A DNA stretch of 64,000 nt from Omnitrophica WOR_2 bacterium GWF2_43_52 (lineage in GTDB: Bacteria > Omnitrophota > Gorgyraeia > Gygaellales > UBA12090), in assembly GCA_001805445.1 (NCBI GenBank), contig MHGF01000036.1, positions 7,526-71,525 of the forward strand. Reading direction: 5' to 3'. Every line of letters starts with the position of its first letter. Within the stretch, counting starts at the first letter, position 1. A model generated the notes under the pieces. That model did not search any database and was not told the origin of the DNA. It saw only the letters and a list, made by a program, of their open reading frames with translations. The translations under genes were made by a program, and so were the position numbers. Below are positions 3,364 through 62,488 of the stretch, in pieces.

Positions 3364-5136
3364 ATGGCATTGATTCCCGAGAGCACTATTGAAGAAATCC
3401 TCTCGCGTATAGATATTATCGAGTTGATTTCAAGCTGTATCCCCTTAAAGCGTATAGGTAAAAGCTATAAGGCGCTGTGTCCTTTCCATAGCGAAAAAAC
3501 CCCTTCTTTTGTAGTAAGCCAGGACCGTCAGATTTTTCATTGTTTTGGTTGTTCAGCGGGTGGCAACGCGATAGGGTTTTTAATGCAGTATGAGCGCCTG
3601 CAATTCCCCGAGGCGGTTGAGGCTTTGGCTAAAAAGGCGGGAGTCATCCTGCCGCAGGCTTCTTCGAGCGCTCAGGAAACGCGCAATCGCGCGGTAACGC
3701 CGCAACTCTACGCAGTCAATGAACTAGCGGCTCAATTTTATAGTAAGTATCTTTGTTCTCCGGAAGGAAAAACAGCGCTTGCCTACCTTAAAAAAAGAGG
3801 TATCGGTTCGGAGTTGATTACAAGCTTTAAGATAGGCTATGCCCCCAGCCGATGGGATGGCTTGCTTACCTATGCAAGAGATAAAAATTATTCCTTAGGG
3901 CTTATTGAAAAGGCGGGTTTGGTTATTCCCAAGGATGGAGGGGGATACTATGACCGTTTTCGGGGCAGGCTTATGATTCCTATCGTTGATGCGAAAGATA
4001 GGGTCGTTGCCTTTGGGGCACGGGTTTTAGATCAGTCGTTTCCAAAATACATCAATTCCCCTGAAACCGCTGTCTATACCAAAGGTAAAATTCTCTTCGG
4101 ATTAATAACCGCGGCCCAGGAAATACGCGCGCAGGATACGGTGATCATTGTTGAGGGTTATTTCGACCTTATGATGCCTTACCAGGCAGGCATAAAGAAT
4201 ATCGTTGCCTCCTGCGGCACAGCGTTGACACTAGAGCAGATACGGCTCCTGAAGCGCTATACCCATAATGTCATTATGATTTACGATTCGGATAATGCCG
4301 GGCAGATGGCAACGATGCGCAGTTTACATACCTTAGTCCACGAGGGGATGGATGTGAAGGTAGTGTGCCTTCCTCAAGGCTATGACCCCGATGCGTATAT
4401 GCGCCATTTCGGCCCTGAGAAGTTTCGGGCGTTGGTAGCTCAGGCAAAAGATATCTTTGATTATGCCATTGATATGCTAAAAATAAAATACAACCCTTGC
4501 GAGGTAAGCGGTAAGGTGAAAATAGCATCTGAAATGCTTGTACTCATCGGCAGTTTTGATAATACAGTTATTGTATCCGCGTACATAAAGAAATTAGCGC
4601 AAGAGTTAACCCTTGATGAACATTCTCTTTTAGTAGAGTTTAAGAAAATAAAGCATGCCGCGCTCTCGCCTATGCATGAGAAAAAAACGCCCGTTTCCGT
4701 GAAACCGTTTTTAGCTTCGTTAGCGTCGGAGCGTTTGTTGGTGAAATTAATGTTGGAGGAGCAGGAGCTTATCGAGAATCTAAAAGGAAAAATTACTCCC
4801 GCGGATTTCCGGGACAGCCATTTAAGCCGGATAGTCGAGAGGATGTTTGATTTATTCTGTCAAGGAAAGAAAATCGACGCGAAAAGCTTAGTCAATGATT
4901 TCTCGGACTCCTCTCTTTCTGCTGTGATCTGTGAGCTTGCCGCAGGTGACGGCCCCCAGTCGCCAGACCGCGGAAAGGCTATGAATGACTGTATTAAACG
5001 GATGAAGGAAGACACGCGCAAACTAAAACAGCAGGAGATCTGCGAAAAGATGAAATTGGCTGAAGTGCAAAAAGATGAGCATAGGCTAAAAGAGCTATTG
5101 GAAGAATTTCAGTGTTTGTCTAAAAAGGGAGGATAA
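3364..5136 (+). CDS. dnaG: DNA primase DnaG
   Basis: CHC2 zinc finger [13 protein letters not shown]...[21 protein letters not shown] region EGYFDLM; immediately upstream of rpoD (classic dnaG-rpoD arrangement). Confidence 0.95.
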
Positions 5137-6701: not shown

Positions 6702-6773
6702 TAATTAGGGACAGACACTATTTATTAAAAATGGCGCGTCTAATATGGAAATAAATAGTGTCTGTCCCTAATT
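6702..6773. repeat. Perfect 23-bp inverted repeat (AATTAGGGACAGACACTATTTAT / ATAAATAGTGTCTGTCCCTAATT) around a 26-nt loop, between the rpoD stop and tRNA-Gly
   Basis: Read directly. No U-tract follows, so it is not a canonical intrinsic terminator. Could be a processing or regulatory hairpin or a mini-palindromic element. Confidence 0.7.
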
Positions 6774-6777
6774 AAGC

Positions 6778-7276: not shown

Positions 7277-7307
7277 CAATATAGCAATATAGTACTATGT
7301 TAAAAGC

Positions 7308-7460
7308 GGATATCAGGGAATCAGGATATTAGGCTTTGGGAATCAGGAGATCAGGAAAGTGGGATTTGTTTTTGTCCCTAATATCCTGATGCCCTGATTG
7401 CCAAATCCTGATACCCAGATTACCTCATTCCCGTATTACACATATTGTAGTTACTGCTGA
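7308..7460. repeat. Copy A of a ~150-nt palindromic element built from ATCAGG/ATTAGG hexamers on the left arm and CCTGAT/CCTAAT on the right arm
   Basis: GGATATCAGGGAATCAGGATATTAGG...CCTAATATCCTGATGCCCTGATTGCCAAATCCTGATACCCAG. Shares architecture and sequence with copies at 16537-16705 and 18641-18775. Confidence 0.8.
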
Positions 7461-7475
7461 AAAACCTTTATTTTG

Positions 7476-7568
7476 CACGAATAGGCACAAATTACACACA
7501 AATACACACGAATTAATTCGTCGCTGTATTCGTGATGATTAGTGTGTAATTCGTGGGAATTCGTGTTT
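7476..7568. promoter_or_regulatory. Cluster of CACGAAT/ATTCGTG motifs upstream of the thyA-like gene, including a perfect 14-bp palindrome ACGAATTAATTCGT at 7509-7522
   Basis: Six copies of the 7-mer in both orientations within about 95 bp directly upstream of the CDS. Operator-like. Confidence 0.4.
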
Positions 7569-7614
7569 AAAAGACGCTTTTTCAGTGATAACTATTGTAA
7601 GAAGGGGGGATGCT

Positions 7615-9887: not shown

Positions 9888-10110
9888 TTAGAATAGCGTA
9901 GGTACAGGAAAGATGATGAGGGGGCGTGCCCCGTACAAAACCTGTAATTTACAGAGCAAAGTTTTGTTCGGGGCGTGCCCCGAACAAATTTTCTGTATAG
10001 GATGTTGATATAAATTAAATTTTATAAAATAGATACCTGGGTATAGTAATTGACTATGGGGGGGCGTGCCCCGTACAAAATTGCTATACTTAGATATAAC
10101 AATTTTGTAC
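9868..10110. repeat. Array of GGGGCGTGCCCCG palindromes, each followed by (T/A)ACAAAA(CCTGTAATT), between the GIY-YIG gene and tRNA-Pro
   Basis: Units at about 9921, 9969 and 10059. The 9-mer CGGGGCGTG is identical to the tRNA-Pro 5' end at 10110. TTTGTTCGGGGCGTGCCCCGAACAAA is itself a long palindrome. Spacing is irregular. Confidence 0.75.
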
Positions 10111-10184: not shown

Positions 10185-10249
10185 CTACACTCTTTTAACG
10201 TTTACCCTATTACACCGTTAAATTAATTATTATTGGTTAACGGTGTAAT

Positions 10250-10375
10250 AAAGGGGGTGTGGGGGAGACCGTCACCCACGATTGGGGAGTGCTCAGCGAT
10301 CCGCCGTAGGCGGAGAGCGCCGAAGGGGGGCTTGCTCCCCTAGCGGAAGTGCGGAGGCAAATTCCGCTTACCCAT
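10250..10375. repeat. Copy 1 of a ~100-nt GC-rich conserved element (AAGGGGTGTGGGGGAGACCGTC.CCCACG.TTGGGG.GTGCTCAGCGATCCGCCGTAGGCGGAGAGCGCCGAAGGGGGGCTTGC.CCCCTAGCGGAAGTGCG)
   Basis: Near-identical second copy at 15402-15530. Contains nested hairpins (CCGCC-GTAG-GCGG; GGGGGG-CTTGC-CCCC). GC-rich island in AT-rich DNA, upstream of the GroES-like gene. Preceded by the inverted repeat TTACACCGTTAA...TTAACGGTGTAA. Confidence 0.75.
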
Positions 10376-13652: not shown

Positions 13653-13726
13653 CAGCTGTCAGCTTTCGGCTGTCAGCTATCAGCTTTGAGCTGAAAGCCG
13701 GATGCTGATAGCTGAAGGCTGAAAAA

Positions 13727-15090: not shown

Positions 15091-15573
15091 TTACTAGTGC
15101 GCTGTGACATTAGATTTTGACATTGCGCTATCATGTTTGAATATAGGGCGGAGGTCCTGTCAAGGTTATGTTTTCGCGGGGACGTTCGGCCTGCTCCTGC
15201 GGCAGACCTCACTCGGCGTAAATTTTCGCGCCCGCCACTAAAAGCGAGAGCGGGTCCAAGCCGCGAAAATTTCCGTACGCCCCGCTCAAACACAACCTTG
15301 CCACCCCCGCTGGCAAGTGAAGTGTTGCAGATAGCATGAATTTATGTCACGGAGCACTAGTACACTGTGAAATTAATTTTCAATAATTGACAGTGTAGTA
15401 AAAGGGGTGTGGGGGAGACCGTCCCCCACGCTTGGGGGGGTGCTCAGCGATCCGCCGTAGGCGGAGAGCGCCGAAGGGGGCTTGCCCCCCTAGCGCCTGC
15501 CTGCCTGCCGGCAGGGAAGTGCGCCCTCAAACCACCGTATATTATCAATAATTAAGTTCACAGCGCACTAGTT
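15091..15573. repeat. About 480-bp noncoding segment bounded by 13-bp inverted repeats (CTAGTGCGCTGTG / CACAGCGCACTAG, with a degenerate internal copy at 15346-15361) holding a GC-rich block and copy 2 of the GC-rich element
   Basis: Read directly. Internal inverted repeat GGCGTAAATTTTCGCGC / GCGAAAATTTCCGTACGCC. Strong GC skew relative to flanks. The 68-aa ORF at 15133-15339 is low-complexity (P/R/A-rich) and judged noncoding. Confidence 0.6.
15402..15530. repeat. Copy 2 of the GC-rich conserved element, carrying a nested insertion of the 22-bp CCTGCCTGCCGGCAGG palindrome between CTAGCG and GGAAGTGCG
   Basis: Copy 1 reads CTAGCGGAAGTGCG. Copy 2 reads CTAGCG-CCTGCCTGCCTGCCGGCAG-GGAAGTGCG. 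Confidence 0.75.
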
Positions 15574-16473: not shown

Positions 16474-16536
16474 ATAGAGCTCAAAGCGTTCTCTAGTACA
16501 CCGTTATATTAATTATTGCCTGCCTGCCACGGGCAG

Positions 16537-16705
16537 GGATATCAGGGTATCAGGGAATTGGGATTTGGGGATCGGGCAATCGAAGGATTAGGGAAAAACC
16601 GATATTTTGTTCCCAATATCCTGATATCCTAATCACCAAATCCTAATCTCCCGATCACCTAATCTCCGCATTTAACATGGTTAATTACATATATTATACG
16701 AGGAG
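16537..16705. repeat. Copy B of the ATCAGG-hexamer palindromic element plus conserved tail CCGCATTTAACATGGTTAATTACATATATTATACG (promoter-like) upstream of lemA
   Basis: GGATATCAGGGTATCAGGGAATTGGGATTTGGGG...CCCAATATCCTGATATCCTAATCACCAAATCCTAATCTCCCGATCACCTAATCTCC. Immediately preceded by the GCCTGCCTGCCACGGGCAGGG palindrome (16518-16538). Confidence 0.8.
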
Positions 16706-16713
16706 GTTTTAAG

Positions 16714-17271
16714 ATGAAGAATTTTTTTATCGGTTTGTTGATTATCGTGGTTATCATAGGAGTGGGTTTTATCGGTATTTATAATACCTTAGTTTCAAAG
16801 AGTGAAAATGTCAAGGCTTCCTGGGCGCAAGTAGAGAATGTGTTGCAGAGAAGAGCGGATTTAATTCCGAATCTGGTAAATACGGTAAAAGGATATGCCG
16901 CCCATGAAAAGACGGTGTTTGAAGAAATAACCAAGGCGCGTTCTGCCTGGGCAAATGCCCCAACACAGGATGATAAAATTAAAGCGGCATCTTCTATGGA
17001 TTCGGCAATTTCCCGGCTTTTGATCGTCGCTGAGAATTATCCTACGTTAAAAGCAGACGGCACCTTTTTAAGGCTTCAGGATGAATTAGCAGGCACAGAA
17101 AACAGGATTTCTGTGGAGAGAATGCGTTATAATGAAGCCGTGCGCGGCTACGCTGTCCTTTTGAAGAGTTTTCCGTCTAATCTGCTTGCGCATTGGTTTG
17201 GGTTTACGCAATTCTCAGAATATTTCAAGGCTGAGGAAAAGGCAAGGGTAGTGCCAGAGGTGAAGTTTTAA
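16714..17271 (+). CDS. lemA: LemA-family protein
   Basis: N-terminal TM followed by YNTLV...E.V...W.QVEN.LQRRADLIPNLV, typical LemA; 185 aa; strong RBS GAGGAGG. Confidence 0.85.
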   Translation: MKNFFIGLLIIVVIIGVGFIGIYNTLVSKSENVKASWAQVENVLQRRADLIPNLVNTVKGYAAHEKTVFEEITKARSAWANAPTQDDKIKAASSMDSAISRLLIVAENYPTLKADGTFLRLQDELAGTENRISVERMRYNEAVRGYAVLLKSFPSNLLAHWFGFTQFSEYFKAEEKARVVPEVKF

Positions 17272-18595: not shown

Positions 18596-18640
18596 GAGTA
18601 CAAAGTAAGCCGATAGATAGTGAAAAGTTGCTTTAAAAGT

Positions 18641-18775
18641 GGATATCAGGGTATCGGGAAATTAGGAAAAAAACTATTCTTTATTCCTACTATCCCGATA
18701 TCCTGATTACCAAATCCTAATCTTCCCGGCCACCTGATTTCCGTATTTAACATGGTTATTTACCTATAGTATGTG
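18641..18775. repeat. Copy C of the ATCAGG-hexamer palindromic element with conserved tail CCGTATTTAACATGGTTATTTACCTATAGTATG upstream of lysC
   Basis: GGATATCAGGGTATCGGGAAATTAGG...CCTACTATCCCGATATCCTGATTACCAAATCCTAATCTTCCCGGCCACCTGATTTCC. Confidence 0.8.
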
Positions 18776-24788: not shown

Positions 24789-24940
24789 CAGCAGAGCTGA
24801 ACATGTTATAGAGGAAGATGATAATTGTTGCGTGTATCGTTAACCTTGCCTACCGGCAGGCAGGCGTGTACCGCTTGCCGTAACGGTAAACGGTTAGCGG
24901 TAAACGGTACACGAAACATAATTTTTAACATAGGAGAGAT

Positions 24941-25157: not shown

Positions 25158-28004
25158 ATGGAAGAATTAAACAGCCGTTACAATTCAAAAGAGGTGGAAG
25201 ACAGGATGTATGCCTTTTGGCAAAGTGAAAACCTGTTTGCCGCCAAAGTTAATCCTGATAAGAAGCCTTTTTGTATCGTTATCCCGCCGCCTAATGTAAC
25301 AGGAATATTACATATGGGCCACGCGCTCAATAACACCTATCAAGACATTTTAATCCGTCTTAGGCGTATGCAAGGCTTTGAGTCTTTGTGGATGCCCGGG
25401 ACCGATCACGCCGGTATTGCCACCCAGAATGTGGTAGAACGCCAACTTGCCAAGGAGGGCTTGAAGCGCCAGGATTTAGGCAGGGACAAGTTTTTGGAGA
25501 GAGTCTGGCAGTGGAAGGAGCAATACGGCTCAACGATTATACGGCAGTTAAAGAAATTGGGCGCGTCAAGTGACTGGCAGCGGGTGCGTTTTACTATGGA
25601 TGAGGAATACTCTCAGTCGGTAAAAGAGGTATTTGTTGCCTTGTGGAATAAAGGCCTGATTTATCAGGATGATAAGATCATCAACTGGTGCCCTCGCTGC
25701 CAAACGGCCTTATCGGATGAGGAAGCTGCTCATCGCGAAGTTCAGGGGAATTTGTATTATATACGGTATTCTCTTAAAGAAGAAATTCGAAATTCGAAAT
25801 TCGAAATTCGAGATAAATCTCAAATCGAAAATCACACATCGCAAAATTATATCGTGGTAGCAACCACACGGCCGGAGACGATGGTAGGGGATACGGCGGT
25901 TGCTCTGAATCCAAAAGATGAGCGCTATAAGCACTTAATTGGTAAAACGGTTATTGTGCCTCTAATAGAACGGGAAATTAAAATAATTGCCGATGAATTG
26001 ATTGATATGGAATTTGGAACCGGTTTGGTGAAGGTTACCCCGGCCCATGACTCCAATGATTATGAGATGGGCAAGCGCCATACACTAGAGTTTATCAACA
26101 TTATGCATCCTAACGCGGTTTTAAATACGAATGCCGGTGACTATAACGGCTTGGATAGGTTTGAGGCGCGAGAGGCAATTATTGAAGATTTAAAAGAAAG
26201 AAAACTCATTGAAAAGATTGAGCCGCATACCCATGCCGTGGGGCATTGTTATCGCTGCTCAACCGTGATAGAACCGTATTTGTCAAGGCAGTGGTTTGTG
26301 AAAATGGAGCCGTTGGCAAAACCGGCGATTGAAGCGGTAAAAGACGGGAGAATCAATTTTTATCCTAAACGCTGGGCCAAGGTTTATCTTAACTGGATGG
26401 AGAATATCAGGGATTGGTGTATCTCTCGCCAAATCTGGTGGGGGCATAGACTGCCGGTTTATTATTGCAAAGAATGCTTGAAAACCGGCAGTCAGTGTAA
26501 AGTTGAAAGTGTAAAGTGTAAAGAAAAAGGAATTATTGTGGCTAAAGTTAAGCCCCAGAAGTGTCCGGATTGCGGTGGAGGGGATATCTATCAGGATGAA
26601 GATGTTTTGGATACCTGGTTTTCTTCCTGGCTGTGGCCGTTTGCTACTTTTTATTGGCCGTTTAATACGAAGGATGAAGCCTGCCTGCCGGCAAGGCAGG
26701 GACGAAGGATGAAGGACGAAAAAGATTTAAACTATTTTTATCCTACGTCTGTCTTAGTGACCGCTCCTGAAATTATTTTTTTCTGGGTGGCGCGTATGAT
26801 TATGGCTGGTTTTGAATTCATGGGAAAAGAACCGTTTAAGGATGTCTATATCCACGGCACCGTGCGGGATGTAGAAGGTAAAAAGATGTCTAAGTCCTTA
26901 GGCAATATCATTGACCCTTTGGAAATTATTGAGAAATACGGCACTGATGCGCTTCGCTTCAGCCTTATTTCTATAACCGCAAGCGGGCAGGATGTCTTTT
27001 TATCCGAGCAGAAGTTCGAGGTGGGCAGGAATTTTGCCAATAAACTCTGGAATGCCTCGCGGTTTTCACTTATGAATTTGGATTTGAGTTTAGTAAATGT
27101 GGATTTATGCGTTTTATTTGAGAAGGAAGACCTTGAACTCCCTGAGCGATGGATCTTGAGCCGGTTTTATTCAATGCTTAGTGCCTTAAATAAGGCGTTA
27201 GATAACTACCGTTTTAATGACGCGGCTAATATCCTCTATGAATTTGTATGGCATGAGTTTTGTGATTGGTATATAGAGCTGGCAAAGCCTAATTTGGTGA
27301 GCGGGTTAGCGGGTGAGCGGGTGAGCGGGGAAAGCAAGAATACACAGATAGTATTGTATAAGGTTTTAGAAAAAACCTTAAGGTGTTTGCATCCGTTTAT
27401 GCCCTTTATTACCGAAGAAATCTGGCAGAAACTTTCTTTAACGTCCCTCGTCCCTCGTCCCCCGTCCTTCGTAAGTATTATGACCCAACCGTGGCCGCAT
27501 GTGCAAAAAAAGATAATCGATAAGAAGGCCGAAAGCCAAATGCAGCTGGCTATTGAGGTTATTACCGCGATCAGAAATTTAAAAGCTGAGGTAAAGATTG
27601 CTCCGGCGCAGGCGGTTAAAGTAATGCTCATAGCTAAGGATAAAGAAGTAAAAAGCGCCTTGGATACAGTAGCGAGCTATATCACGAATTTGGGAAGGGT
27701 AGAGGCTTTAACAATTCAAGGAGCGCCCGCAAAGCTGAAAAAAGGTATAAGTGCTATAGTACATGAGGTGCAGGTATTTTTAGAGCTTGAAGGATTGCTT
27801 GATATTGATCAGGAAATAGAACGGCTTACTAAGGAAGCCGATGCGCTTGCGGGATCTTTAAAGTCAAAGGAATCCCGGCTAAAAAATAAGGATTTCCTCA
27901 AAAAAGCACCCGAAGAAATTGTGGAAAAAGAGAAAGAGTCGCTGGCACAAGGCCAGGAAAAATTGGCAAGCCTGCAGAGGGTTATTAGTGAGCTTAAGAA
28001 ATAA
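25158..28004 (+). CDS. valS: Valine--tRNA ligase
   Basis: HIGH (PPNVTGILHMGHALN), KMSKS, editing domain, C-terminal coiled-coil; 948 aa. Carries five short repeat-derived in-frame insertions (25783-25810, 26494-26523, 26667-26714, 27298-27331, 27443-27472). Confidence 0.95.
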   Translation: MEELNSRYNSKEVEDRMYAFWQSENLFAAKVNPDKKPFCIVIPPPNVTGILHMGHALNNTYQDILIRLRRMQGFESLWMPGTDHAGIATQNVVERQLAKEGLKRQDLGRDKFLERVWQWKEQYGSTIIRQLKKLGASSDWQRVRFTMDEEYSQSVKEVFVALWNKGLIYQDDKIINWCPRCQTALSDEEAAHREVQGNLYYIRYSLKEEIRNSKFEIRDKSQIENHTSQNYIVVATTRPETMVGDTAVALNPKDERYKHLIGKTVIVPLIEREIKIIADELIDMEFGTGLVKVTPAHDSNDYEMGKRHTLEFINIMHPNAVLNTNAGDYNGLDRFEAREAIIEDLKERKLIEKIEPHTHAVGHCYRCSTVIEPYLSRQWFVKMEPLAKPAIEAVKDGRINFYPKRWAKVYLNWMENIRDWCISRQIWWGHRLPVYYCKECLKTGSQCKVESVKCKEKGIIVAKVKPQKCPDCGGGDIYQDEDVLDTWFSSWLWPFATFYWPFNTKDEACLPARQGRRMKDEKDLNYFYPTSVLVTAPEIIFFWVARMIMAGFEFMGKEPFKDVYIHGTVRDVEGKKMSKSLGNIIDPLEIIEKYGTDALRFSLISITASGQDVFLSEQKFEVGRNFANKLWNASRFSLMNLDLSLVNVDLCVLFEKEDLELPERWILSRFYSMLSALNKALDNYRFNDAANILYEFVWHEFCDWYIELAKPNLVSGLAGERVSGESKNTQIVLYKVLEKTLRCLHPFMPFITEEIWQKLSLTSLVPRPPSFVSIMTQPWPHVQKKIIDKKAESQMQLAIEVITAIRNLKAEVKIAPAQAVKVMLIAKDKEVKSALDTVASYITNLGRVEALTIQGAPAKLKKGISAIVHEVQVFLELEGLLDIDQEIERLTKEADALAGSLKSKESRLKNKDFLKKAPEEIVEKEKESLAQGQEKLASLQRVISELKK
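25783..25810 (+). repeat. Intragenic tandem repeat (GAAATTC)x4 within valS
   Basis: Read directly. Lies in a surface-loop region that is about 13 aa longer than E. coli ValRS. Confidence 0.8.
26667..26714 (+). repeat. 22-bp palindrome CCTGCCTGCCGGCAAGGCAGGG flanked by perfect 13-bp direct repeats ACGAAGGATGAAG, inserted in-frame inside valS
   Basis: Read directly. The same palindrome family occurs at 15496-15516, 16518-16538 and (reverse orientation) 24844-24866. Confidence 0.8.
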
Positions 28005-49303: not shown

Positions 49304-51084
49304 ACATAAAGAGCGGCTTGTTGGAAAAGAAAAGCATGGCATTGAGTATTTTTAGTATTGCAGCCATTATCTTTTGTTCCCCTATTTTTCATAACTTTAG
49401 CTATTTAGGGCAGATGGATTGGGACCAGTTTACCTTTTGGAATGCGGTTCCCAGAAAAACGGTCCTGACGTATCATCAATTTCCTCTTTGGAATCCTTAT
49501 GGTAACGGCGGAAATGTTCTCTTAGCCCATCCCCACTCCTCATTTTTATCTCCCTTTTACCTTTTCGTATTATTTTTTGGCCCGGTAACCGGGATAAAAT
49601 TGGAAATTATAGTTCTTTTAATTATCGGAATGCTTGGGATGTTTTTATTGTCTAACCATATGGGGGGGAAAGGAATATCCTCATATGCGCCATCTTTTGT
49701 TTTTATGTTAAGCTCTATTTATCCGCTGCATTTAACTGAAGGCCATGTGGAGTGGTTAGGGATGGCATTTGTCCCATGGTTATTTTTATCTTATCTAAAG
49801 AGTATAGATAATAAGAACTATGTATATGTGGCACTATTACTTTTTGCGGTAATGGTATTAGGGGGTGGCGTTTATATCTCAGTAATAATGGCTGCATTTC
49901 TTACGCTCTATTCATTTGTTATGATTGTGCGAGAAAAAAGAATCGTGTGGCTTAGAAATATAGCTATTATCTTCGCGGGCGTTTTCCTGCTCTCTTCGAT
50001 TAAATTGTTCCCTATGCTTGAGTTTCTAACTCATTCCCCCAGAACTATTGAATCTACGGAAAATATAAGCCCGTTGTTACTTCCTACTATTTTGTTAGAT
50101 AGAAATCAAGGTGGTTTATATGCTCAGACTAAATGGAGTGCTCCTGATAAGAAGGCTTTTGTCGGGAACAATGTAGTGATAGATTACGGTTGGCATGAAT
50201 ATGGCGCATATATAGGAATTATCCCCCTGCTGTTATTTGCCGGGGGCATATTTTTTAGCTTTAAAAAACAATGGCCATTCCTCTTGATTGGAATTATTTT
50301 TCTGATACTGAGCTTGGGGCGAGGTTTTCCCATTGATCTATGGCGGATACTGCATTTTTTACCAATCTATGATTCCCTCCATGTACCTTCAAGATTAATC
50401 CTTATTTTTATTTTCGTTCTTTCCATCTTTTCCGGTTTATGTTTATCAAAAATTGAAGAAAACATGAAAAAAATGAATACAGGCAGGGCAGGAGTATTTC
50501 TGATAGTTTTGTTCATTTTTTTAGATTTATATTTAGTGAATGGCTTTATTTTAAAGCAGGCATTTGTAATTGCACCAATAAGAGTTGAATATAACGCAGA
50601 ATTTAAGCAAAGGTATGATTCCGTTAATTTTTATCCCGCTATTAGCCGCAGCGCTATGTATCCCATCTTTTTAAGCAATAGCGGGATACTTGACGCGTAT
50701 GAAGTGATAAATGTTAAAAAGGGAAATGTTCTTGCAGTTAAGGATCCTGGGTATAGAGGGGAGGTTTATTTAGCTGACGGCAAAGGTAGCGCAACGATTA
50801 CTTCTTTTTCTCCCAATAGAATAGTTGTAAATGTTAACGCTCATGACGTGGATACTTTAGTTTTGAACCAGAATTATTATAAAGGTTGGAGGCTAAAAGG
50901 TTGTCATGATCCCAGAGTAAGATCTTTTAATGGCCTTATTGCAGCACATGTTGATTCTTCGGATAAGAAAGCAATATTTTTTTATATGCCAAAGAGTTTC
51001 ATCATAGGGTGCCTTGTGACCGGTGCAAGCATAATAACAATATTTTTATTTTTGTTAAAGAGTAAACTGGCAAGCAATGATTAA
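49300..51084 (+). CDS. Polytopic membrane protein, GT-C-like (YfhO-like) candidate glycosyltransferase or polymerase
   Basis: About 12 TM helices; conserved FPLWNPYGNGG loop; C-terminal soluble beta-rich domain; 594 aa. Confidence 0.45.
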   Translation: MNIKSGLLEKKSMALSIFSIAAIIFCSPIFHNFSYLGQMDWDQFTFWNAVPRKTVLTYHQFPLWNPYGNGGNVLLAHPHSSFLSPFYLFVLFFGPVTGIKLEIIVLLIIGMLGMFLLSNHMGGKGISSYAPSFVFMLSSIYPLHLTEGHVEWLGMAFVPWLFLSYLKSIDNKNYVYVALLLFAVMVLGGGVYISVIMAAFLTLYSFVMIVREKRIVWLRNIAIIFAGVFLLSSIKLFPMLEFLTHSPRTIESTENISPLLLPTILLDRNQGGLYAQTKWSAPDKKAFVGNNVVIDYGWHEYGAYIGIIPLLLFAGGIFFSFKKQWPFLLIGIIFLILSLGRGFPIDLWRILHFLPIYDSLHVPSRLILIFIFVLSIFSGLCLSKIEENMKKMNTGRAGVFLIVLFIFLDLYLVNGFILKQAFVIAPIRVEYNAEFKQRYDSVNFYPAISRSAMYPIFLSNSGILDAYEVINVKKGNVLAVKDPGYRGEVYLADGKGSATITSFSPNRIVVNVNAHDVDTLVLNQNYYKGWRLKGCHDPRVRSFNGLIAAHVDSSDKKAIFFYMPKSFIIGCLVTGASIITIFLFLLKSKLASND

Positions 51085-52594
51085 CAAAAAATTCAATAAA
51101 ATATGCCTTATAAGGATGGATTCGCGTATTTTAAAGATAACAGCAGGACATCCTAAACATTTTTCTCCGCCTTTTACGCTAAAATATATACAGGCATTAT
51201 TGGCTAAAAATGAAAATTTCCAGGTTAAGCTGATTGATTGCATAGTTACTTCGGTAGATTTGAAAAATCTTCTTGATCGTTCCCTGGACTGGGGCACAGA
51301 GGTAATGGTTGTTTCTAGCACTACGCATAGCAGGGAACTGGCAATGCAATTCTGTTCGTTGGTTAAGATGAAAAAGGATGTTTTTGTTGTAGCTGTTGGG
51401 CAAGGAGCAACCGCTCATTCTTTTGATTATTGCTTTCCATCGTCTCCTTTTGATGTTGTGTTGCGAGGTGAATCTGAGCAAGAGGTAATTTCTTTGCTTG
51501 AATCTTTGAATAGTGGGGAAAACCAGCAGCAGATCAGAGAAACATACCGTAAGAAGTTGAATGCAAAGGAAGTTACTCTAATTTGGGATTTGGATTCTTT
51601 GCCGTTTCCAGATTATGAGGATAGAGAAATAGAAGCCTACCGCTTTTTTTATCCTATAAGGACATGGAAAAGGCTTCGTTGGGGCCATATTCTTTCGTCC
51701 CGCGGATGCCATCACGGCTGCATATTCTGTTCTCAAATAATCAGGGAAACGTACGGGAATAAAATGAGATTAAGGGACCCTGTGAAGGTAGTTGATGAAA
51801 TTGAATATTTAATGGGCAAGGGCATTAACATTATTGCATTTGATGATGATAATTTTACTGCTTCAGCGCAGCATGTTGTTGCAATATCCTCGGAATTAAT
51901 AAAAAGAAAATTGAAAATTCGGTGGATTGCTCATGCGCGGGCAGATGAACTCAGTATTCCTCTCATGCATCTTATGAAAAAAGCGGGCTGCGTTTTATTG
52001 CGTTTTGGTATTGAATCGGCTTCAGCTCGAATTATCAGGATTCTTAAGAAAAATACCCGGGATACCAATTGGATAGAGACAATTGAAAATATCCTAAGGC
52101 ATTGCAGAAAAACTGGAATCGCAACGCATGCCTTATTTATGGTTGGGAACCCTACTGAGACGTCGGAAGAAATAAAAGCAACGATACAATTAGCTGAAAT
52201 ATTGAAGCCGGATTTAATACAGGTGCATTTTTTTACTCCTTATCCCGGTTCAGTTATATATGAAAATGTCTGTAATCACGTAATCAGAAACCATCAATTG
52301 TCGCAGATGCATCATTATGCTTTCCCAAAGGTAAATTTAGCGTATGTTGATAGTGATGATTTAATGATGTTGCGTGCTCTATTCTATAGAAGGTTTCTAT
52401 TGAGGCCGTCTTTTTTGCTCAAGCATTTTTCCCGATATTTTTTGTATTACCTTGCCAATGGCAGATGTAGATATGCGTTATTAAAGGTTTTTAAAATTTT
52501 ATTTCAACGCAGAGCTGGAAAGCGGTCCCAATTCTGCAGGAAAAGAGACGGTGGTTTTTTGGCGCTCGATGCGCTTAATAACGGGATTATATGA
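51077..52594 (+). CDS. B12-binding domain radical SAM protein
   Basis: Triad GCHHGCIFC, B12-binding N-domain; 505 aa. Confidence 0.8.
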   Translation: MINKKFNKICLIRMDSRILKITAGHPKHFSPPFTLKYIQALLAKNENFQVKLIDCIVTSVDLKNLLDRSLDWGTEVMVVSSTTHSRELAMQFCSLVKMKKDVFVVAVGQGATAHSFDYCFPSSPFDVVLRGESEQEVISLLESLNSGENQQQIRETYRKKLNAKEVTLIWDLDSLPFPDYEDREIEAYRFFYPIRTWKRLRWGHILSSRGCHHGCIFCSQIIRETYGNKMRLRDPVKVVDEIEYLMGKGINIIAFDDDNFTASAQHVVAISSELIKRKLKIRWIAHARADELSIPLMHLMKKAGCVLLRFGIESASARIIRILKKNTRDTNWIETIENILRHCRKTGIATHALFMVGNPTETSEEIKATIQLAEILKPDLIQVHFFTPYPGSVIYENVCNHVIRNHQLSQMHHYAFPKVNLAYVDSDDLMMLRALFYRRFLLRPSFLLKHFSRYFLYYLANGRCRYALLKVFKILFQRRAGKRSQFCRKRDGGFLALDALNNGII

Positions 52595-54039
52595 AAGTTG
52601 CATTAATTTTTCCGACATATGCCCATAAAATATTTACTGAAAATTTGAGCACTGTTGATGAGGAATTTTGTGTCGCTCCGCCGATAATACTGGCCTATGT
52701 GGCTGCGATTCTTGAAAAGCATGGTCACGCGGTAATGTTACTTGATGCAAAAGCATTGACTCTTTCAAAAGAGGAGGCGTTGAAAAGGTTTGTGGCGTTT
52801 GAGCCGGATATATTAGGTTTTAGGGCCGAAACATACTATTTCCATGAAGCATTAGACTGGATCCGCTATCTTAAGGCTCATCTTGGAGTTCCGGTAATAG
52901 CAGGAGGAATTAATTTGACCTTGTATCCTCTCGAAGTTCTTTCTCACCCGGAGATTGATTATGGAATTATTGGTGAGGCTTTTGAGTCTCTCCCGCGGTT
53001 TCTTTCCGCTTTAGAAAATGGCGATGACTATTCGCGCCTGTCCGGCGTCGCCTATAAGGATGATGAAAATAAAGTAGTGATAAATCCTCCTGAGCATAAG
53101 GTGTACGATTTTGATTTATACCCCTATCCTGCACGGCATCTCCTGCCAAACGATAAATATTATTCTTTTGTGTCGCAGCGGAAAAATTTTACCATAATGC
53201 TCACGAGCACGGGGTGCCCTTATGGATGTTTATTTTGCGCGATTCCTTTTTCTTATAGGGTAAGGACTCCTGAAAATGTTGTTGATGAGATTGAAGTTTG
53301 TTATCAAGATTTCGGAGTGCGGGAAATCGATTTTTTTGATGCGGTATTGTTTATGCCCAGAGAGCGCATACGGGAGATTTTTCGCTTAATTCAAAGACGC
53401 AAATTAGATATAGAGTGGTCAGCCCGCTCAAGGATTGATGTAGTCGATGAGCAACTGCTCAAAGAGGCTGCACGGGCAGGATGCAGGCAAATATACTACG
53501 GCATAGAATCTGCAGATCAGCAAATTCTTGATAGTGTGAAAAAGGGGATACAGCCAAAAGCCGTAATTGAAACGATAAAAATTTCTAAGAAGTTTGGTAT
53601 ACGGACTATGGGTTTTTTTATGGTGGGTAACCCCGGCGAAACCAAGGAAAGCGTGCGTAAAACTATAGAATTCTCAAAAACCTTAGGTTTAGATTTCATC
53701 CAGGTTTCGCGGACAATCCCAAAGCCAGGGACAGAACTTGATAATGCGATGATGAAGGTGAGCATGCGTGATTATTGGAGAATGCATGTGCAAGGTGAAG
53801 AAATAGCGCATAGATTGCCAACCCCATGGGTTAATTTAACTGAACAAGAAAAGGAGTCTTTGGCAAAGGAGTTCTATATAAAATTTTATTTTCGCCCAAG
53901 AATTATAGCGCAAAGGATACTGCAGTTGCGATCATGGGAGGAATTTATAAGGTACATCAGAGTTGCGTTGAAAATCATATTCCAGAAATCAGAATTAAGC
54001 TTGAGGCGTACGGGGAGCGAAATAAAAAACTATGAATAA
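52591..54039 (+). CDS. B12-binding domain radical SAM protein
   Basis: Triad GCPYGCLFC; 482 aa. Confidence 0.8.
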   Translation: MKVALIFPTYAHKIFTENLSTVDEEFCVAPPIILAYVAAILEKHGHAVMLLDAKALTLSKEEALKRFVAFEPDILGFRAETYYFHEALDWIRYLKAHLGVPVIAGGINLTLYPLEVLSHPEIDYGIIGEAFESLPRFLSALENGDDYSRLSGVAYKDDENKVVINPPEHKVYDFDLYPYPARHLLPNDKYYSFVSQRKNFTIMLTSTGCPYGCLFCAIPFSYRVRTPENVVDEIEVCYQDFGVREIDFFDAVLFMPRERIREIFRLIQRRKLDIEWSARSRIDVVDEQLLKEAARAGCRQIYYGIESADQQILDSVKKGIQPKAVIETIKISKKFGIRTMGFFMVGNPGETKESVRKTIEFSKTLGLDFIQVSRTIPKPGTELDNAMMKVSMRDYWRMHVQGEEIAHRLPTPWVNLTEQEKESLAKEFYIKFYFRPRIIAQRILQLRSWEEFIRYIRVALKIIFQKSELSLRRTGSEIKNYE

Positions 54040-54174
54040 AAGGAGTTTAAAGAACAGAAGCGCAATAGTGCCTTGTCAAATAATAAAAACCAAAACAGTG
54101 TAGCGGGGTGCGCGAGCTTTTTTTATGACGCTACTATGAGTCAACGCAGGGCGCTTGCGCTTTAAAAGGACAGA

Positions 54175-55626
54175 ATGCATAAACCGAATAAGGTTGTTTT
54201 TATCAGGTTCCCAAAAAACTTACAAAAAAAATCCCATCCGACTGAAACGGTTTGGCCTTTTTCCATAGGCATCGCAGGGACTATACTAAAGAGATTGGGC
54301 TTTTCCATAAAGATAATTGACCTTCAGGTTGAAGAAAATCAGAGATATGACAATGCCATGCAAGCTATTCTGAGCCTTGATATGGATATGCTTTTTGTCC
54401 AATATGAAACGCTTTCACTTTGTTTGGCTTCGTCTTTTTGCGCCCAGTTAAGAAAGGTAAAAGAAAATATTATTGTCATTGGCTTTGGACAGCATGCTTC
54501 TGCTCTTCCTCGTGAACTTATTGAGAGCCATGGGGCAGATATCTGTATCACTACTGACCTTGAGTTTGTTATAGAGGAATTAGTTCATGCTATTCAAAAT
54601 GATAGTCTCGTAAAACTTAAAAATATCGCTTACAAGGATTGCGAGAAGGTTATTATTAAAGAAAGCGCTGTGCCTGATTTTCATCCGGATTCTCTTCCAT
54701 TTGTTGATCCATCCCTTTTTCAGCTTACTCGATACAGGCGAAAAAAGTTTCCCAAGCCATTCTTTTGGGGAAAGGACTGGGGTTTCGTCAGAACAAGCTT
54801 AGGGTGTCCCTACCATTGTATATTCTGTTCGCCTCTTCTAAGGCATTCCATAGAGAAGGCATACAGGGCCCATTCAATAGGGTATATTTATAGGCAAATT
54901 AAATATTACAAAGAAGAGTTTGGGTTAAGGACTTTTTCTATGGAAGACGATATATTCTCCATTGATGAAGACAGGACCCTGCGTCTTTGCGATGCGCTCA
55001 GAAGCCTAAGAATAAGATGGGTTGTTGATGGGGCCAGGGCCGATAGGTTATCCGCGGCGTTATTAAAAATGATGAAGCAGGCCGGATGTTATGGAATAGG
55101 TATTGGTATCGAGTCAGGAAGTCAGAATATTTTGGATAGTTTAGGAAAGCAGCAAAACAGGGAAAAGATAAAAGAATGCGCCCTTACTATAAAAAAAACA
55201 GGCATGCTGTTGGTCGGGTACGTTATGGTGGGAGCTCCCCGTGAGACCGAGCATGAGGTAGAAGAAACCTTTCGCTTGATACGTGAAATAGCTCCCCATG
55301 TCCTCTACGCGCACTATTTTATCCCTTACCCAGGCTCACAGGCATATGAACTATTTAAAGAAAAGCTTTTTCTTGCGCATATGACGCATTATAGATACCC
55401 TCGAGTGAATTTTAGCAATATGGATGCTATAGTATTAAGGAATTGCATGAAAACGCTCTATGCCCGCTATTATTTATCTTTTAGCTACCTAAAAGAATAT
55501 ATAACAGGGAGATTGAAATATGCGCTCTTTGATATACATGAGGTAATGTTACTTAAAGATGCGATTGTATTTATTATGCGTGGAAATCAAAAAGATGAGA
55601 CTATCGAAAAAATTGAAAGCTTGTAA
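54175..55626 (+). CDS. B12-binding domain radical SAM protein
   Basis: Triad GCPYHCIFC; 483 aa. Confidence 0.8.
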   Translation: MHKPNKVVFIRFPKNLQKKSHPTETVWPFSIGIAGTILKRLGFSIKIIDLQVEENQRYDNAMQAILSLDMDMLFVQYETLSLCLASSFCAQLRKVKENIIVIGFGQHASALPRELIESHGADICITTDLEFVIEELVHAIQNDSLVKLKNIAYKDCEKVIIKESAVPDFHPDSLPFVDPSLFQLTRYRRKKFPKPFFWGKDWGFVRTSLGCPYHCIFCSPLLRHSIEKAYRAHSIGYIYRQIKYYKEEFGLRTFSMEDDIFSIDEDRTLRLCDALRSLRIRWVVDGARADRLSAALLKMMKQAGCYGIGIGIESGSQNILDSLGKQQNREKIKECALTIKKTGMLLVGYVMVGAPRETEHEVEETFRLIREIAPHVLYAHYFIPYPGSQAYELFKEKLFLAHMTHYRYPRVNFSNMDAIVLRNCMKTLYARYYLSFSYLKEYITGRLKYALFDIHEVMLLKDAIVFIMRGNQKDETIEKIESL

Positions 55627-56629
55627 GGAGATTTTTAAGATAAAGATGTTCGGGAAGAGAATGCCTTTAGCAGTGACCTGGAGTATTACCGATAGATGTA
55701 ATTTTCAGTGTTACTATTGCGGCAGGTGGAAGATGAGTACGCAGGAGCTCTCAACAGATGATGCGATGGCGCTTATATCGGGTCTTGCAAACGCGCGGTG
55801 CCTGAGAATAGTCTTTGGGGGAGGGGAACCGTTATTGAGAAAGGACATAGGGCTATTAATTGATTTCTGTAAGAAAAAGGGGATTTCTACCGGCCTGATC
55901 TCAAACGGTTATTTTCTCGCAGAAAGGATAGACGAAATAAGGAATATTGATACGTTGGCATTGAGCATTGACGGAATTGGAGGAGTGTGCGATTTTATAA
56001 GGGGTACGTCAGGAGCCTATGAAAATGTCGTGGCGGCCATTAAAATAGCGAGGAAGAAAAAAATAAGAGTAATCCTGAATACTGTTTTAACAAGGTATAA
56101 TCTGGATCAGGTAGATTTGATTATAGAGTTTGCCACGAAACATGGTGCAGGGGTGATGTTTGGCCCTGTGAGCTCTATTCACTTCGGAGGCAGCGCAATA
56201 GATTCCCTAGTACCCGGCAAATCGGAATTTCGAAATATCATTGATACATTAGTTGGATACAAAAAAGATAAAAAACCTATACTTAATTCTCTTGCCGCGT
56301 TACATTATATGCATGATTGGCCATATTATAAGCAGATACCTTGTTATGCGGGAAGGGTTTTTTGTCATATTTCAGCAAACGGCAGTTTTTATCCCTGCGT
56401 GGCGCTGGAGGGCAGCGTTACGGCATCTTGCCTGCGTCATGATTTTAGTGAAGTTCTGGAGGCAGTTTCGCATAAGACAAGGCATTGTAATGGATGTTGG
56501 TGCACAGGGACATTAGAGTTTAACCAAATGTTATCCCTCAAACTAACGGCATTGATGAGTATTTTACATTTCGCTACATCTCCGCCAAAAATTAGGAACC
56601 GAAGAATTCATGAGCCATGTAAGATTTAA
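55595..56629 (+). CDS. Radical SAM/SPASM-domain protein, paralog 1 of 5
   Basis: PLAVTWSITDRCNFQCYYCG; GGGEPLL; C-terminal Cys cluster CYAGRVFCH...YPC...CNGCWCTGTLEFN. Start chosen at MRLSKKL by alignment with paralogs. Confidence 0.75.
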   Translation: MRLSKKLKACKEIFKIKMFGKRMPLAVTWSITDRCNFQCYYCGRWKMSTQELSTDDAMALISGLANARCLRIVFGGGEPLLRKDIGLLIDFCKKKGISTGLISNGYFLAERIDEIRNIDTLALSIDGIGGVCDFIRGTSGAYENVVAAIKIARKKKIRVILNTVLTRYNLDQVDLIIEFATKHGAGVMFGPVSSIHFGGSAIDSLVPGKSEFRNIIDTLVGYKKDKKPILNSLAALHYMHDWPYYKQIPCYAGRVFCHISANGSFYPCVALEGSVTASCLRHDFSEVLEAVSHKTRHCNGCWCTGTLEFNQMLSLKLTALMSILHFATSPPKIRNRRIHEPCKI

Positions 56630-56695
56630 TGATTTCTGCGGAAGAGGCATGATAGGTAATGAGGAAAGGATGAGGCAGGCCTTTATCGGGTAGTT

Positions 56696-58276
56696 ATGGT
56701 AAAACGTGATACGGTGAAATTTAATGGTGGTTATCAAAGAATATCTGTTTATGCCATTCTTTTCTTGGGGATAGGTGGGTATACTGTGTTCTTTACCGCT
56801 TTGCAAGTAATAAAATACAGGACCTTGTTTACTCTTAATCCAATTAGTTTAGCAGGCTTCAACCAAGTGGCAATTAATACCGCCAGAGGAATCCCTTTTT
56901 ATTGTAGCTTTAGTAATGATGTCTTTGCCAATAATCATTTCCATCTCATTTTTATTCTCCTTGCATTAGCGTATAAAATATATCCCCATATCTATACTTT
57001 ATTTTTTTGCGTAAGTTTTGCTTTAGGAATAGGAGGAGTTGGTATCTATTTGATAACAAAGAAGCTCTTTTCTAGTATTCGGATGGGTGTATTCTTCTTT
57101 ATCGTATATTTACTCTCGCCCGTTTTGCATTTTATAAATTTTGTTGATTTTAGGCCAATTGTATTGAGCATACCTTTTTTTATCTTTATGGTTTACTTCT
57201 ATATGGAAGAAAAATTTATTCCTTTCTTTGTTTTTTCATCATTATTTCTTATGTGCCAGGAACATTTGGCATTTTGCTTGATGATGTTCGGAATATCTTC
57301 TATTTTCCGGAGAAAAAGCCTTCAATGGATACTTATGCCAATTATCTATGGGGGAGCATGGTTCATAGTCACGGCAACAATTATTTTGCCTTCTCTCGGG
57401 TATGAAATCTATAGGCCCCTTGAGGATTACTTCCGCGGGGAAAGAAACAGTTTGGCGCACGGCTGCCTTTGGATACTGGAAAATCCTCTGGCAGCATTGA
57501 AAATTATGTTTTCTTCAAGCCATATTTCTTATTTGGCAATGATAGTTAATCCCGCTATTTTTTCCATGGCAATCTTCTCCCCCGAAATATTGGTTTTCGC
57601 CTTTCCAACTTTCTTGGAGTTGTTGTTGCGTACTGATGCGTACCAGTTTACTCCTGATTTAGCAACTACCAGTATTTCTCCTATTTTTGTTTGCCTATTT
57701 CTGGCGCTTGTCCATAGTTATAAGAAAATATTCACAGCCGTTAATTCTTTGAAGTTACCAAGTGCTATACAAATAGGTTTTAAGAAAATAATATTATTAG
57801 CTTTAGTTTCATGGACATGTACAGGAAATCTTGGAAATAATTTAATCTTTGATAAGAATAGCAGGGAGAAAGGAGTGGATATTGCGGAAAAATTCAAAAG
57901 AGCCACCAATATGTTTGACCCAGTTTTTTATACCATCGAGGAGGATGATTATCTGGCATGGCGTTTGATTTCAGCAATCCCTGTTGAGGCTTCAGTCGCT
58001 ACAAGAGGCGATTTGTTGCCTGCTTTGTCGAATCGTGCCAGGCTCTATGAGTTTGGCAGAGTCGGTTTTCAGAAAAAAGAAAAAGAGGTGGGAGTAGGAA
58101 GTTACCTTTTACCTGACTATATAATTTTTAGAAGGAAAACGTGTTTTTACGGAGCATATAACGATGAGATCGATGACGCAATGGCGCTTGATTTTGCTCA
58201 TAGGCTCATAAACGAGCATACGTATAACAGTGTTGTTGAAAATGATACCTTTGTGTTTTTGAAAAGAAATCCTTAG
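56696..58276 (+). CDS. Polytopic membrane protein (DUF2079-like), paralog of the partial ORF at 62489
   Basis: About 12 TM helices; C-terminal conserved block MFDPVFYTIEEDDYLAWRLISAIPVEASVATRGDLLPALSNRARLYEFG shared with the downstream paralog. Confidence 0.5.
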   Translation: MVKRDTVKFNGGYQRISVYAILFLGIGGYTVFFTALQVIKYRTLFTLNPISLAGFNQVAINTARGIPFYCSFSNDVFANNHFHLIFILLALAYKIYPHIYTLFFCVSFALGIGGVGIYLITKKLFSSIRMGVFFFIVYLLSPVLHFINFVDFRPIVLSIPFFIFMVYFYMEEKFIPFFVFSSLFLMCQEHLAFCLMMFGISSIFRRKSLQWILMPIIYGGAWFIVTATIILPSLGYEIYRPLEDYFRGERNSLAHGCLWILENPLAALKIMFSSSHISYLAMIVNPAIFSMAIFSPEILVFAFPTFLELLLRTDAYQFTPDLATTSISPIFVCLFLALVHSYKKIFTAVNSLKLPSAIQIGFKKIILLALVSWTCTGNLGNNLIFDKNSREKGVDIAEKFKRATNMFDPVFYTIEEDDYLAWRLISAIPVEASVATRGDLLPALSNRARLYEFGRVGFQKKEKEVGVGSYLLPDYIIFRRKTCFYGAYNDEIDDAMALDFAHRLINEHTYNSVVENDTFVFLKRNP

Positions 58277-58311
58277 GGTTTTTCTTTAGCGTAGCACGTT
58301 GCTAAATAAAA

Positions 58312-59364: not shown

Positions 59365-59435
59365 AATGAAAAAGCAGCTATGCAATGAATGCTGGCAGAC
59401 AATAGCAGGGGTGAATCCTGCTAAGGAGGCTGTGC

Positions 59436-60440: not shown

Positions 60441-60445
60441 AAATT

Positions 60446-61441: not shown

Positions 61442-61453
61442 GAATACTGCGCT

Positions 61454-62461: not shown

Positions 62462-62488
62462 AAGACAGAGTGAACTATAAAAACTAAT

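Follow-up and report, generated by a model that had tools for sequence, protein, structure and literature searches.

A dispersed family of palindromic RTATCAGG elements in operon spacers of an uncultivated Omnitrophota bacterium

Three elements in operon spacers and their empty orthologous sites

The window, a stretch of 64,000 nt of the Omnitrophica WOR_2 bacterium GWF2_43_52 assembly (contig MHGF01000036.1), belongs to an uncultivated groundwater Omnitrophota bacterium known from metagenome-assembled genomes (MAGs). It contains three homologous palindromic elements, here named A, B and C, at about 7282-7459, 16537-16699 and 18632-18773. All three are located between co-directional housekeeping genes: A in the spacer between a yjbQ-like and a thymidylate-synthase-like (thyA-like) gene, B between a TPM-domain gene and lemA, and C between the iPGM gene and lysC. 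The copies align over ~190 columns with a mean column identity of 73%. Their shared left end GGATATCAGGGWATCRGG has three exact matches in the window, all on the + strand; with up to three mismatches, eight matches were found, all within A, B and C (expected 0.12). The tail motif CCGYATTTAACATGGTTAWTTAC occurs in the window only in B (16666-16688) and C (18741-18763), at an expectation of 0.00. These counts confirmed, beyond chance, the three copies that had been proposed by a sequence-only reading of the window. The same reading had placed the tail motif about 30-50 nt upstream of lemA and lysC; from the end of the motif it is 26 nt to the lemA start codon and 36 nt to the lysC start codon. 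About ten independent assemblies of the same species carry the elements identically or with one base different, and an assembly artefact was therefore ruled out.

The spacers are much shorter in related genomes. The yjbQ-to-thyA-like spacer has 338 nt in the window and 172 nt in a 90% relative. The TPM-to-lemA spacer has 240 nt versus 17 nt in the 90% relative and 15, 12 and 35 nt in three others, and LemA identity is 78-87% for these four relatives. The iPGM-to-lysC spacer has 203 nt versus 23 nt in the 90% relative and 47 nt in the 92% relative L132 (90-92% being iPGM identity); the 47-nt spacer of L132, the orthologous site of C, is empty of the element. The empty TPM-lemA sites, including those of L136 and L137, consist of stop codon, GGAGG, ~7 nt and ATG. 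A, B and C are inserted downstream of the preceding gene's stop codon and upstream of the following gene's ribosome-binding site, the one position at which neither gene nor the ribosome-binding site is damaged. The filled and empty sites clearly show A, B and C to be recent insertions into tightly packed operons, in the lineage of the window only.

Just past the iPGM stop codon, more distant relatives have a different tandem array in each lineage: GTCAATA x4 in L129 (11195-11335), TAGAGTT x4 in L130 (8423-8502) and GTRTCAW x5, that is, GTATCAA heptamers, in L133 (7017-7089).

Element architecture, folding and tail

In a whole element of ~150-230 nt, tandem units form a G-rich arm, which an A/T loop separates from its C-rich mirror arm. 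The unit had been described as a hexamer. It is an octamer with the consensus RTATCAGG (321 units from 64 arrays), and 230 of 258 steps between units measure 8 nt. In this unit set, conservation is 84-89% at the ATCA positions, and C is nearly excluded from the two variable positions; the final GG was demanded by the unit-calling script and is invariant by construction. Each arm starts with a short head; two sets of three octamers come next, separated by a 6-nt linker (NTTTGG or NAGTGG), and the G-run spacing is 8-8-8-6-8-8-8. The building block is a module of ~30 nt, made of the short head and three octamers: two direct modules, the A/T loop and two inverted modules form the element. A/T-rich termini (GTTAAAAGCGG ... 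CCGCATTTAAC) prolong the palindrome outward. In the terminus alignment, the left terminus, AGTAnTATGTTAAAAGCGG in A and in a copy on the metagenome contig L131, mirrors the right-hand CCGCATTTAACATnGTTAATTAC. The left arm and mirrored right arm of the earlier description stood, but not the extent given for them: the palindrome reaches past those coordinates into both flanks. Copy C lacks one 30-nt module of the left arm and has a complete right arm. The left side of B is a mosaic in which a 25-nt piece of another dispersed repeat and a small GC hairpin replace the usual terminus. The arms of A form an inverted-repeat pair with 95% complementarity. The parts of the three copies are located as follows.

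7282-7459, no strand: element A, whole extended palindrome (extended fold -70.7 kcal/mol, z -5.35)
7276 and 7615: flanks of A, end of the yjbQ-like stop codon and start of the thymidylate-synthase-like gene
7290-7309, + strand: left terminus of A, TAGTACTATGTTAAAAGCGG, mirroring the right-hand tail (terminus alignment)
7308-7364, + strand: G-rich arm of A, with GCGG terminus, three octamers, CTTTGG linker, two octamers and AAAGTGGG; G-run spacing 8-8-8-6-8-8-7
7375-7433, + strand: C-rich mirrored arm of A, with CCTGATNN units and CCAAAT linker; spacing 8-8-8-6-8-8-8
7430-7454, + strand: diverged right tail of A, CCCGTATTACACATATTGTAGTTAC
16493-16538, + strand: mosaic left flank of B, with the 25-nt repeat fragment CTAGTACACCGTTATATTAATTATT and the GC hairpin GCCTGCCTGCC-ACG-GGCAGG instead of GTTAAAAGCGG
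16537-16593, + strand: G-rich arm of B
16612-16667, + strand: C-rich mirrored arm of B; spacing 8-7-9-6-8-8-7
16666-16699, + strand: tail of B, CCGCATTTAACATGGTTAATTACATATATTATAC, with palindrome terminus, small TTAAC-N3-GTTAA palindrome and -10-like TATTAT
16700-16706, + strand: GAGGAGG ribosome-binding site of lemA (ATG at 16714), probably ancestral and outside the element
18632-18773, no strand: element C; the iPGM stop codon ends at 18595 and the lysC ATG is at 18799
18641-18666, + strand: G-rich arm of C, one module of three octamers
18686-18742, + strand: C-rich arm of C, with three units, CCAAAT and three units
18741-18773, + strand: tail of C, CCGTATTTAACATGGTTATTTAC followed by CTATAGTATG; the distal part may be ancestral flank

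Two other repeats adjoin these copies. Directly 3' of A, a 120-nt palindrome of CACGAAT/ATTCGTG and CACAAATTACA units (7460-7581) has 54-nt arms with 72% complementarity; its C-type arm comes first, opposite to the ATCAGG elements. The small GC hairpin GCCTGCC(TGCC)-N3-GGCAGG recurs at 16518-16538, 24846-24866, 26680-26700 and ~15495-15515. These places are spacers, the left end of B and, once, the interior of valS.

Each copy was predicted to fold into a long imperfect hairpin, as had been expected. The RNA minimum free energies of A, B and C are -62.5, -54.8 and -37.2 kcal/mol with z-scores of -8.2, -4.1 and -4.8, and the opposite strands fold nearly as well. Extended folds pass through the tails or termini; in B and L131, the ribosome-binding site pairs with the far-left flank. 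The consensus hairpin (RNAalifold) has 36 pairs, 4 of which show changes on both sides. No match to A, B or C was obtained in Rfam 15 at the gathering threshold or at E <= 1. A terminator scan of the three copies detected no terminator-like site, and no U-tract follows the hairpin.

The tail had been interpreted as a promoter brought along by the element. It reads TTTAAC-15 nt-TATTAT, with TAGTAT in C, and this arrangement is kept in B, C, L131 and the locus L025. The sigma-70 scan made no call. Three of the 6 positions of the -35-like TTTAAC agree with the consensus TTGACA, the spacer has 15 nt, and a canonical TTGACA-17-TATTAT is located upstream of gpsA in the same genome. The termini mirror each other and the extended folds run through them; the promoter-like tail therefore coincides in large part with the palindrome's outer end. 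Indeed, the tail is largely the mirror of the left end (GTTAAAAGCGG versus CCGCATTTAAC). A similar tail in A and L131 faces backwards into the upstream gene, in A with a minus-strand promoter-like match at 7303-7276. The gene-facing tail of A is diverged and followed by another 150 nt before the gene. A search of ~1 Mb of loci with a tail profile (nhmmer) revealed neither an armless tail nor further members. On these observations, a promoter in the tail is putative and would be weak. The GAGG that comes after the tail probably belongs to the downstream gene, as its ribosome-binding site, and not to the element; this is the simplest explanation because the empty sites of relatives already carry GGAGG. 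Ribosome-binding site and start codon are not supplied by the element: the start codons are those of unrelated genes.

Dispersal, known repeat families and competing explanations

The family extends beyond the window. The element on L131 is 92% identical to B over 167 nt, including the tail (window 16537-16703). It is located between two co-directional genes, directly upstream of purE, and the loci of L131 and B share no coding similarity. In a metagenome scan with the arm-plus-tail pattern, L131 was the only locus matched. The Omnitrophota MAG loci L025, L076 and L108 have termini in common with A, B and C. A genome scan with an exact 18-mer yielded at least 118 loci. About 70 were expected by chance, roughly half of the loci being coincidences in coding sequences, and every locus was therefore re-screened for arrays. 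Arrays of at least four units were present in 53 of the loci, in MAGs labelled Omnitrophota, Pirellulales/Phycisphaerae/Sedimentisphaerales, WOR-3, Stahlbacteria, WOR-1, Saganbacteria, Elusimicrobia, Auribacterota and others; Clostridia and Deltaproteobacteria are also among the labels of positive MAGs. Of the 15 best-preserved elements, 10 have the 8-8-8-6-8-8-8 layout in one arm or both, across phylum labels. Adjacent G-type and C-type arrays are ordered G-then-C in 29 cases and C-then-G in none. The elements were found only in intergenic spacers, 27 of 31 between co-directional genes. Going by MAG labels, the family thus seems to cross phyla with the same architecture and the same G-arm-then-C-arm polarity. 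The dispersed copy at purE, the empty orthologous sites and the related elements in many MAGs bear out the suggestion of a MITE- or REP-like family (miniature inverted-repeat transposable element; repetitive extragenic palindrome) with copies beyond the three loci.

The genome of Tantalella remota (Omnitrophota) is dense with arrays, several of them in one mosaic spacer of 650 nt. In this spacer (L057, 5876-6550), CCTGAT-type arrays, CCCTATT heptamers and small GC hairpins make up a mosaic that is duplicated; the organisation resembles that of bacterial interspersed mosaic elements (BIMEs) at a much larger scale. In the Omnitrophota MAG JBARQV, a conserved GC-rich segment, GGGGCGGGTGGCGCGACAGTGTCCGAGCAC...GCCAGTGGCGCGGAGGCGCG, comes after the ATCAGG palindromes (L042, ~3520-3640 and ~4754-4870; L047, ~7300-7400, minus strand); the segment may belong to a larger composite element or a structured RNA.

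A distant blastn search with element B had no match in phage and plasmid collections, and a single match in viral contigs was a chance match inside a coding sequence. Literature searches on the sequence itself and on Omnitrophota repeats retrieved nothing relevant. The family seems to be undescribed.

In behaviour, the nearest known repeats are REP/BIME mosaics, hairpins of short tandemly repeated repetitive (STRR) sequences and signal-carrying MITEs such as Correia and REP2 (PMC3733652, PMC2670836, PMC3184786). With the REP/BIME of Enterobacteria and Pseudomonas, the elements share imperfect intergenic palindromes, mostly between co-directional operon genes, co-transcribed hairpins and mosaics with other motifs, here the left flank of B and L057. 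REPs, of 20-40 nt and headed by GTAG or CGTC, are mobile through RAYT transposases (PMC3733652). The elements described here differ in both size and head: they have 150-230 nt and tandem octamers, and GTAG is present in some left flanks (L131, L025) and in the tail of A at no consistent position. No RAYT-like neighbour was found within 2.5 kb of the arrays in the 53 loci. STRR sequences are short tandem intergenic units able to form hairpins, for example at hupS-hupL, with proposed roles in transcript stability, translational coupling and termination (PMC2670836). The likeness lies in hairpin-forming arrays between co-transcribed genes. STRR units have 7 nt and are known from filamentous cyanobacteria, whereas the RTATCAGG unit has 8 nt and the elements have a fixed modular layout, conserved termini and whole dispersed copies in Omnitrophota, Planctomycetota and other uncultivated hosts.

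Several MITE features are present: the elements are small (within the 50-500 bp of MITEs) and non-coding, have inverted ends (GTTAAAAGCGG / CCGCATTTAAC, the whole element being an inverted repeat), are dispersed (three copies here plus L131) and show filled and empty sites among relatives. REP2 and Correia repeats of Neisseria provide a promoter and ribosome-binding site at the gene-facing end (PMC3184786). They are likewise small and non-coding with inverted ends, vary in presence among strains and lie just upstream of genes. Correia elements differ by their 26-bp terminal inverted repeats, a duplicated TA and promoter activity that has been measured; the elements described here are palindromes of octamer arrays throughout, and their putative promoter would be weak on sequence grounds. 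Rickettsia palindromic elements (RPEs) are selfish palindromes that are tolerated in unusual places, even in frame within protein-coding genes, and the valS gene of the window likewise has six in-frame arrays of 7-8 nt. In contrast, the ATCAGG elements are intergenic only, the valS inserts of the window have other units, and there is no sequence similarity to RPEs.

Tandem arrays are also bound by ribbon-helix-helix proteins: MetJ on 8-bp met boxes and the inc18 omega repressor on WATCACW heptads. These are tandem 7-8-bp units, direct and converging, near promoters, and the ATCA core of the omega heptad resembles the core of RTATCAGG. Their arrays have 2-10 units at a few defined promoters, whereas the elements have ~12 units each, occur in many copies at unrelated genes, are rapidly gained and lost and have no known binding protein.

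The explanation favoured here has about an even chance of being right: A, B and C would belong to a dispersed non-coding mosaic palindromic repeat family, REP/BIME-, MITE- or STRR-like, which is selfish or near-neutral, spreads as DNA and is tolerated in operons. The elements are most likely selfish or near-neutral passengers rather than gene-specific regulators. During operon transcription, the element would fold into a long imperfect hairpin and the insert would be looped out. At the base of the stem, the upstream stop codon would rejoin the downstream ribosome-binding site and start codon, so that operon expression, possibly with translational coupling, would survive the insertion. The weak promoter-like TTTAAC-15-TATTAT of the tail may add some transcription. 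For the cyanobacterial STRR hairpins, transcript stabilisation or translational coupling was proposed (PMC2670836). The many other tandem and mirrored arrays of 7-8 nt in the genome fit a general selfish or mutational process. This supports a general repeat-generating or repeat-tolerating process in these genomes, with the ATCAGG family as its most structured product.

A number of observations speak against a selfish repeat that spreads as DNA and is tolerated as a hairpin. In ~72 kb of host genome there are three copies, all inside 11.5 kb; no copy was found in ~60 kb of DNA from relatives. Comparison of filled and empty sites defined neither a target-site duplication nor an exact boundary, because the flanks are too diverged to place the insertion boundaries. 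TA dinucleotides border TGTT...AACA in A and L131 and are missing from the other copies. Clustering of neighbouring open reading frames (ORFs) within 2.5 kb of the arrays at the 53 loci revealed no transposase and no recurrent family, only the promiscuous signalling domains receiver, GGDEF and HD-GYP. The tests for selection on the hairpin were also negative. Native arm pairs gain no stability over chimeras (-54.0 versus -54.7 kcal/mol), arm identity is 0.72 within and 0.69 between elements, indicating no co-adaptation, and the more stable fold is that of the sense strand in 14 cases and of the antisense strand in 15. Because all three tests were negative, compensatory evolution of an RNA hairpin was dropped as a claim. 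Pairing is a consequence of the shared unit and layout and is not kept pair by pair; there is no RNA-specific signal. Across phyla, the two variable positions drift, unlike the conserved core and 8-nt period; this hints at sequence-specific recognition, for which a selfish hairpin offers no explanation. The cross-phylum conservation of core and layout, together with a means of spread for which neither a transposase partner nor a clear target-site duplication was found, holds down the confidence in the selfish-repeat explanation.

A tentative alternative, possible though rather doubtful, is that RTATCAGG arrays are the recognition platform of an undiscovered cross-phylum system. It is suggested by the fixed layout of three octamers, 6-nt linker and three octamers, the strict polarity and the conserved core in Omnitrophota, Planctomycetota, Margulisbacteria-related, WOR-3 and other MAGs. 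The arrays may be two-module ends of a widespread but so far unrecognised family of non-autonomous transposons with several transposase sites, by analogy with Mu, Tn7 and Tc1-like inverted repeat/direct repeat (IR/DR) ends, or they may be bound by a small conserved protein that forms polymers along 8-bp repeats. The arrays would then be more than decaying remains of a local repeat. Another proposal, which is unlikely, is a protein-binding platform on double-stranded DNA: a small protein would polymerise along the tandem 8-bp units, about six in each of two converging arms, and the element would be an operator or nucleoid-organising site near promoters. The conserved ATCAGG core (84-100%) with two variable spacer bases, the period of 8 in 230 of 258 steps, the layout fixed across phyla and the location close upstream of start codons are consistent with such a site, as are arms that are alike only at the level of the unit consensus, as expected of an oriented site array, and the strictly converging orientation (29 to 0). 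The omega repressor has a similar preference for converging orientation. However, polarity is explicable by descent from a single palindromic ancestor, the downstream genes (lemA, lysC, purE, rplU and others) are unrelated housekeeping genes with no regulon logic, relatives of 90-92% identity do without the sites, and no protein family co-occurs with the arrays at the 53 loci as a candidate binder. The multimeric regulator sites suggested by the sequence-only reading thus fit the conserved core and the arms that are not co-adapted, but not the unrelated downstream genes and the fast site turnover.

The promoter cassette of the same reading, now distinctly unlikely, would be a mobile element with an outward tail promoter and possibly a ribosome-binding site: the hairpin would end the upstream transcript and the tail restart transcription for lemA, lysC or purE, as in REP2 and Correia. 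Promoter-carrying repeats are known (PMC3184786), the conserved tail of B, C, L131 and L025 faces the gene and ends ~10-35 nt before the start codon, its TATTAT is the hexamer of the gpsA promoter, and a strong hairpin in an operon would be polar unless transcription restarts. This is opposed by the poor -35 match and short spacer with no sigma-70 call, the tail as a mirrored terminus that faces backwards in A and L131, the absence of armless tails in the ~1 Mb searched, the diverged and distant tail of A and a hairpin that, without a U-tract, is unlike an intrinsic terminator. Functionless, immobile arrays from local replication slippage and fold-back errors in a repeat-expanding lineage are a very improbable origin. 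Many unrelated 7-8-nt arrays in the window and in relatives, even in frame in valS, and a homogeneous (GGGTATCA)x10 in L091 that looks freshly slipped would agree with it. Slippage cannot give 70-92% full-length identity, including variable positions and termini, at unrelated loci and genomes, nor can it explain the 8-8-8-6-8-8-8 layout common to several phyla. For A, B and C, it is largely refuted by the whole-element homology between non-orthologous sites. The least probable explanation is an RNA switch in which a TRAP/HutP/CsrA-type protein would bind the six AUCAGG(A/G) units of the 5' arm, open the hairpin and free either the C-rich 3' arm (Rho-loading-like, YC every 8 nt) or the ribosome-binding site. 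HutP binds two triplets of NAG repeats, which the 3 + linker + 3 layout resembles, and the units are often CAGGA, similar to a CsrA site. The palindrome also puts the G-arm 5' in transcripts from either direction, the ribosome-binding site is part of the basal pairing in the extended hairpin, and solo arrays are G-type on the sense strand in 8 cases and C-type in 2, small and non-independent counts. Against a switch are the missing strand bias in folding, the lack of compensatory upkeep of pairing, the absence of an Rfam match, the quick site turnover among close relatives and the lack of a known candidate protein.

Other candidates were set aside. A dif/Xer site does not fit, since ATTTAACATAG...TTATGCG has 13 nt between the arms versus 6 in dif. 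The IHF consensus WATCAR-N4-TTR is matched only if the unit after ATCAGG has the form ATTRGG. G-quadruplexes were discarded because most G-runs consist of GG and the loops have 6 nt. Resemblance was too weak or wrongly spaced for GGA motifs of CsrA, for complementarity of AGGTGATC units to the 16S rRNA 3' end and for a Chi- or KOPS-like polarity.

Other repeats of the window and biological meaning

Arrays with other units are frequent in the window. In valS (25158-28004), six in-frame tandem 7-8-nt arrays occupy variable loops between conserved motifs (25782-25847, 26494-26523, 26680-26720, 27296-27329 and 27442-27472). The units are GAAATTC x4.3, AAATCNC x4.4, AGTGTAA x4.3, GGACGAA x3, GGTGAGCG x4.2 and CGTCCCT x4.4. 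The relatives L129 and L130 have different inserts in the same valS loops, and the ValRS of L129 has the segment STVHSP(K/Q)STEK at two places. The 74-nt spacer between the thrC-like gene and DFP (13653-13726) consists entirely of (CAGCTNT)x5 and its mirror (ANAGCTG)x5. This hairpin has the design of the ATCAGG elements with an unrelated heptamer, is of the STRR kind and obtained only chance-level Rfam matches to microRNA precursors.

A second dispersed non-coding repeat of ~150-217 nt is located at 10203-10353 and 15355-15570, upstream of the Cpn10-like and TPM genes, and on L131 (1684-1870); its copies are 79-82% identical. It matched the Clostridiales-2 RNA (RF02937) over the full length and below the gathering score (42.3 and 32.0 versus 58.6 bits; E-values 2e-7 and 2e-4). 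Three copies of ATGRGGGGGCGTGCCCCGTACAAAA, each with the palindrome GGGGCGTGCCCC, are present at 9916-10080 in a 222-nt spacer upstream of tRNA-Pro. Between rpoD and tRNA-Gly, a perfect 25-nt inverted repeat with a 23-nt loop (6702-6774) ends 3 nt before the tRNA. At ~51000-62500, and on into L138, about eight paralogous radical-SAM genes, some B12-binding, are interleaved with DUF2079 membrane proteins; their CxxxCxxC-encoding segments appear as direct-repeat families.

The non-coding DNA of Omnitrophota and neighbouring groups, all uncultivated, is almost uncharted. The elements mark strain-level variation. They may mislead assemblers and gene callers, as ORFs extend into arrays and related arrays are in frame in valS. 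The recent insertions into essential operons, exactly between stop codon and ribosome-binding site, are a natural test of the tolerance of a coupled operon for a hairpin of 150-230 nt. The presence of the same unit and architecture in several phyla that share habitats would point either to an unknown mobile element that is passed on horizontally or to a conserved factor recognising RTATCAGG arrays.

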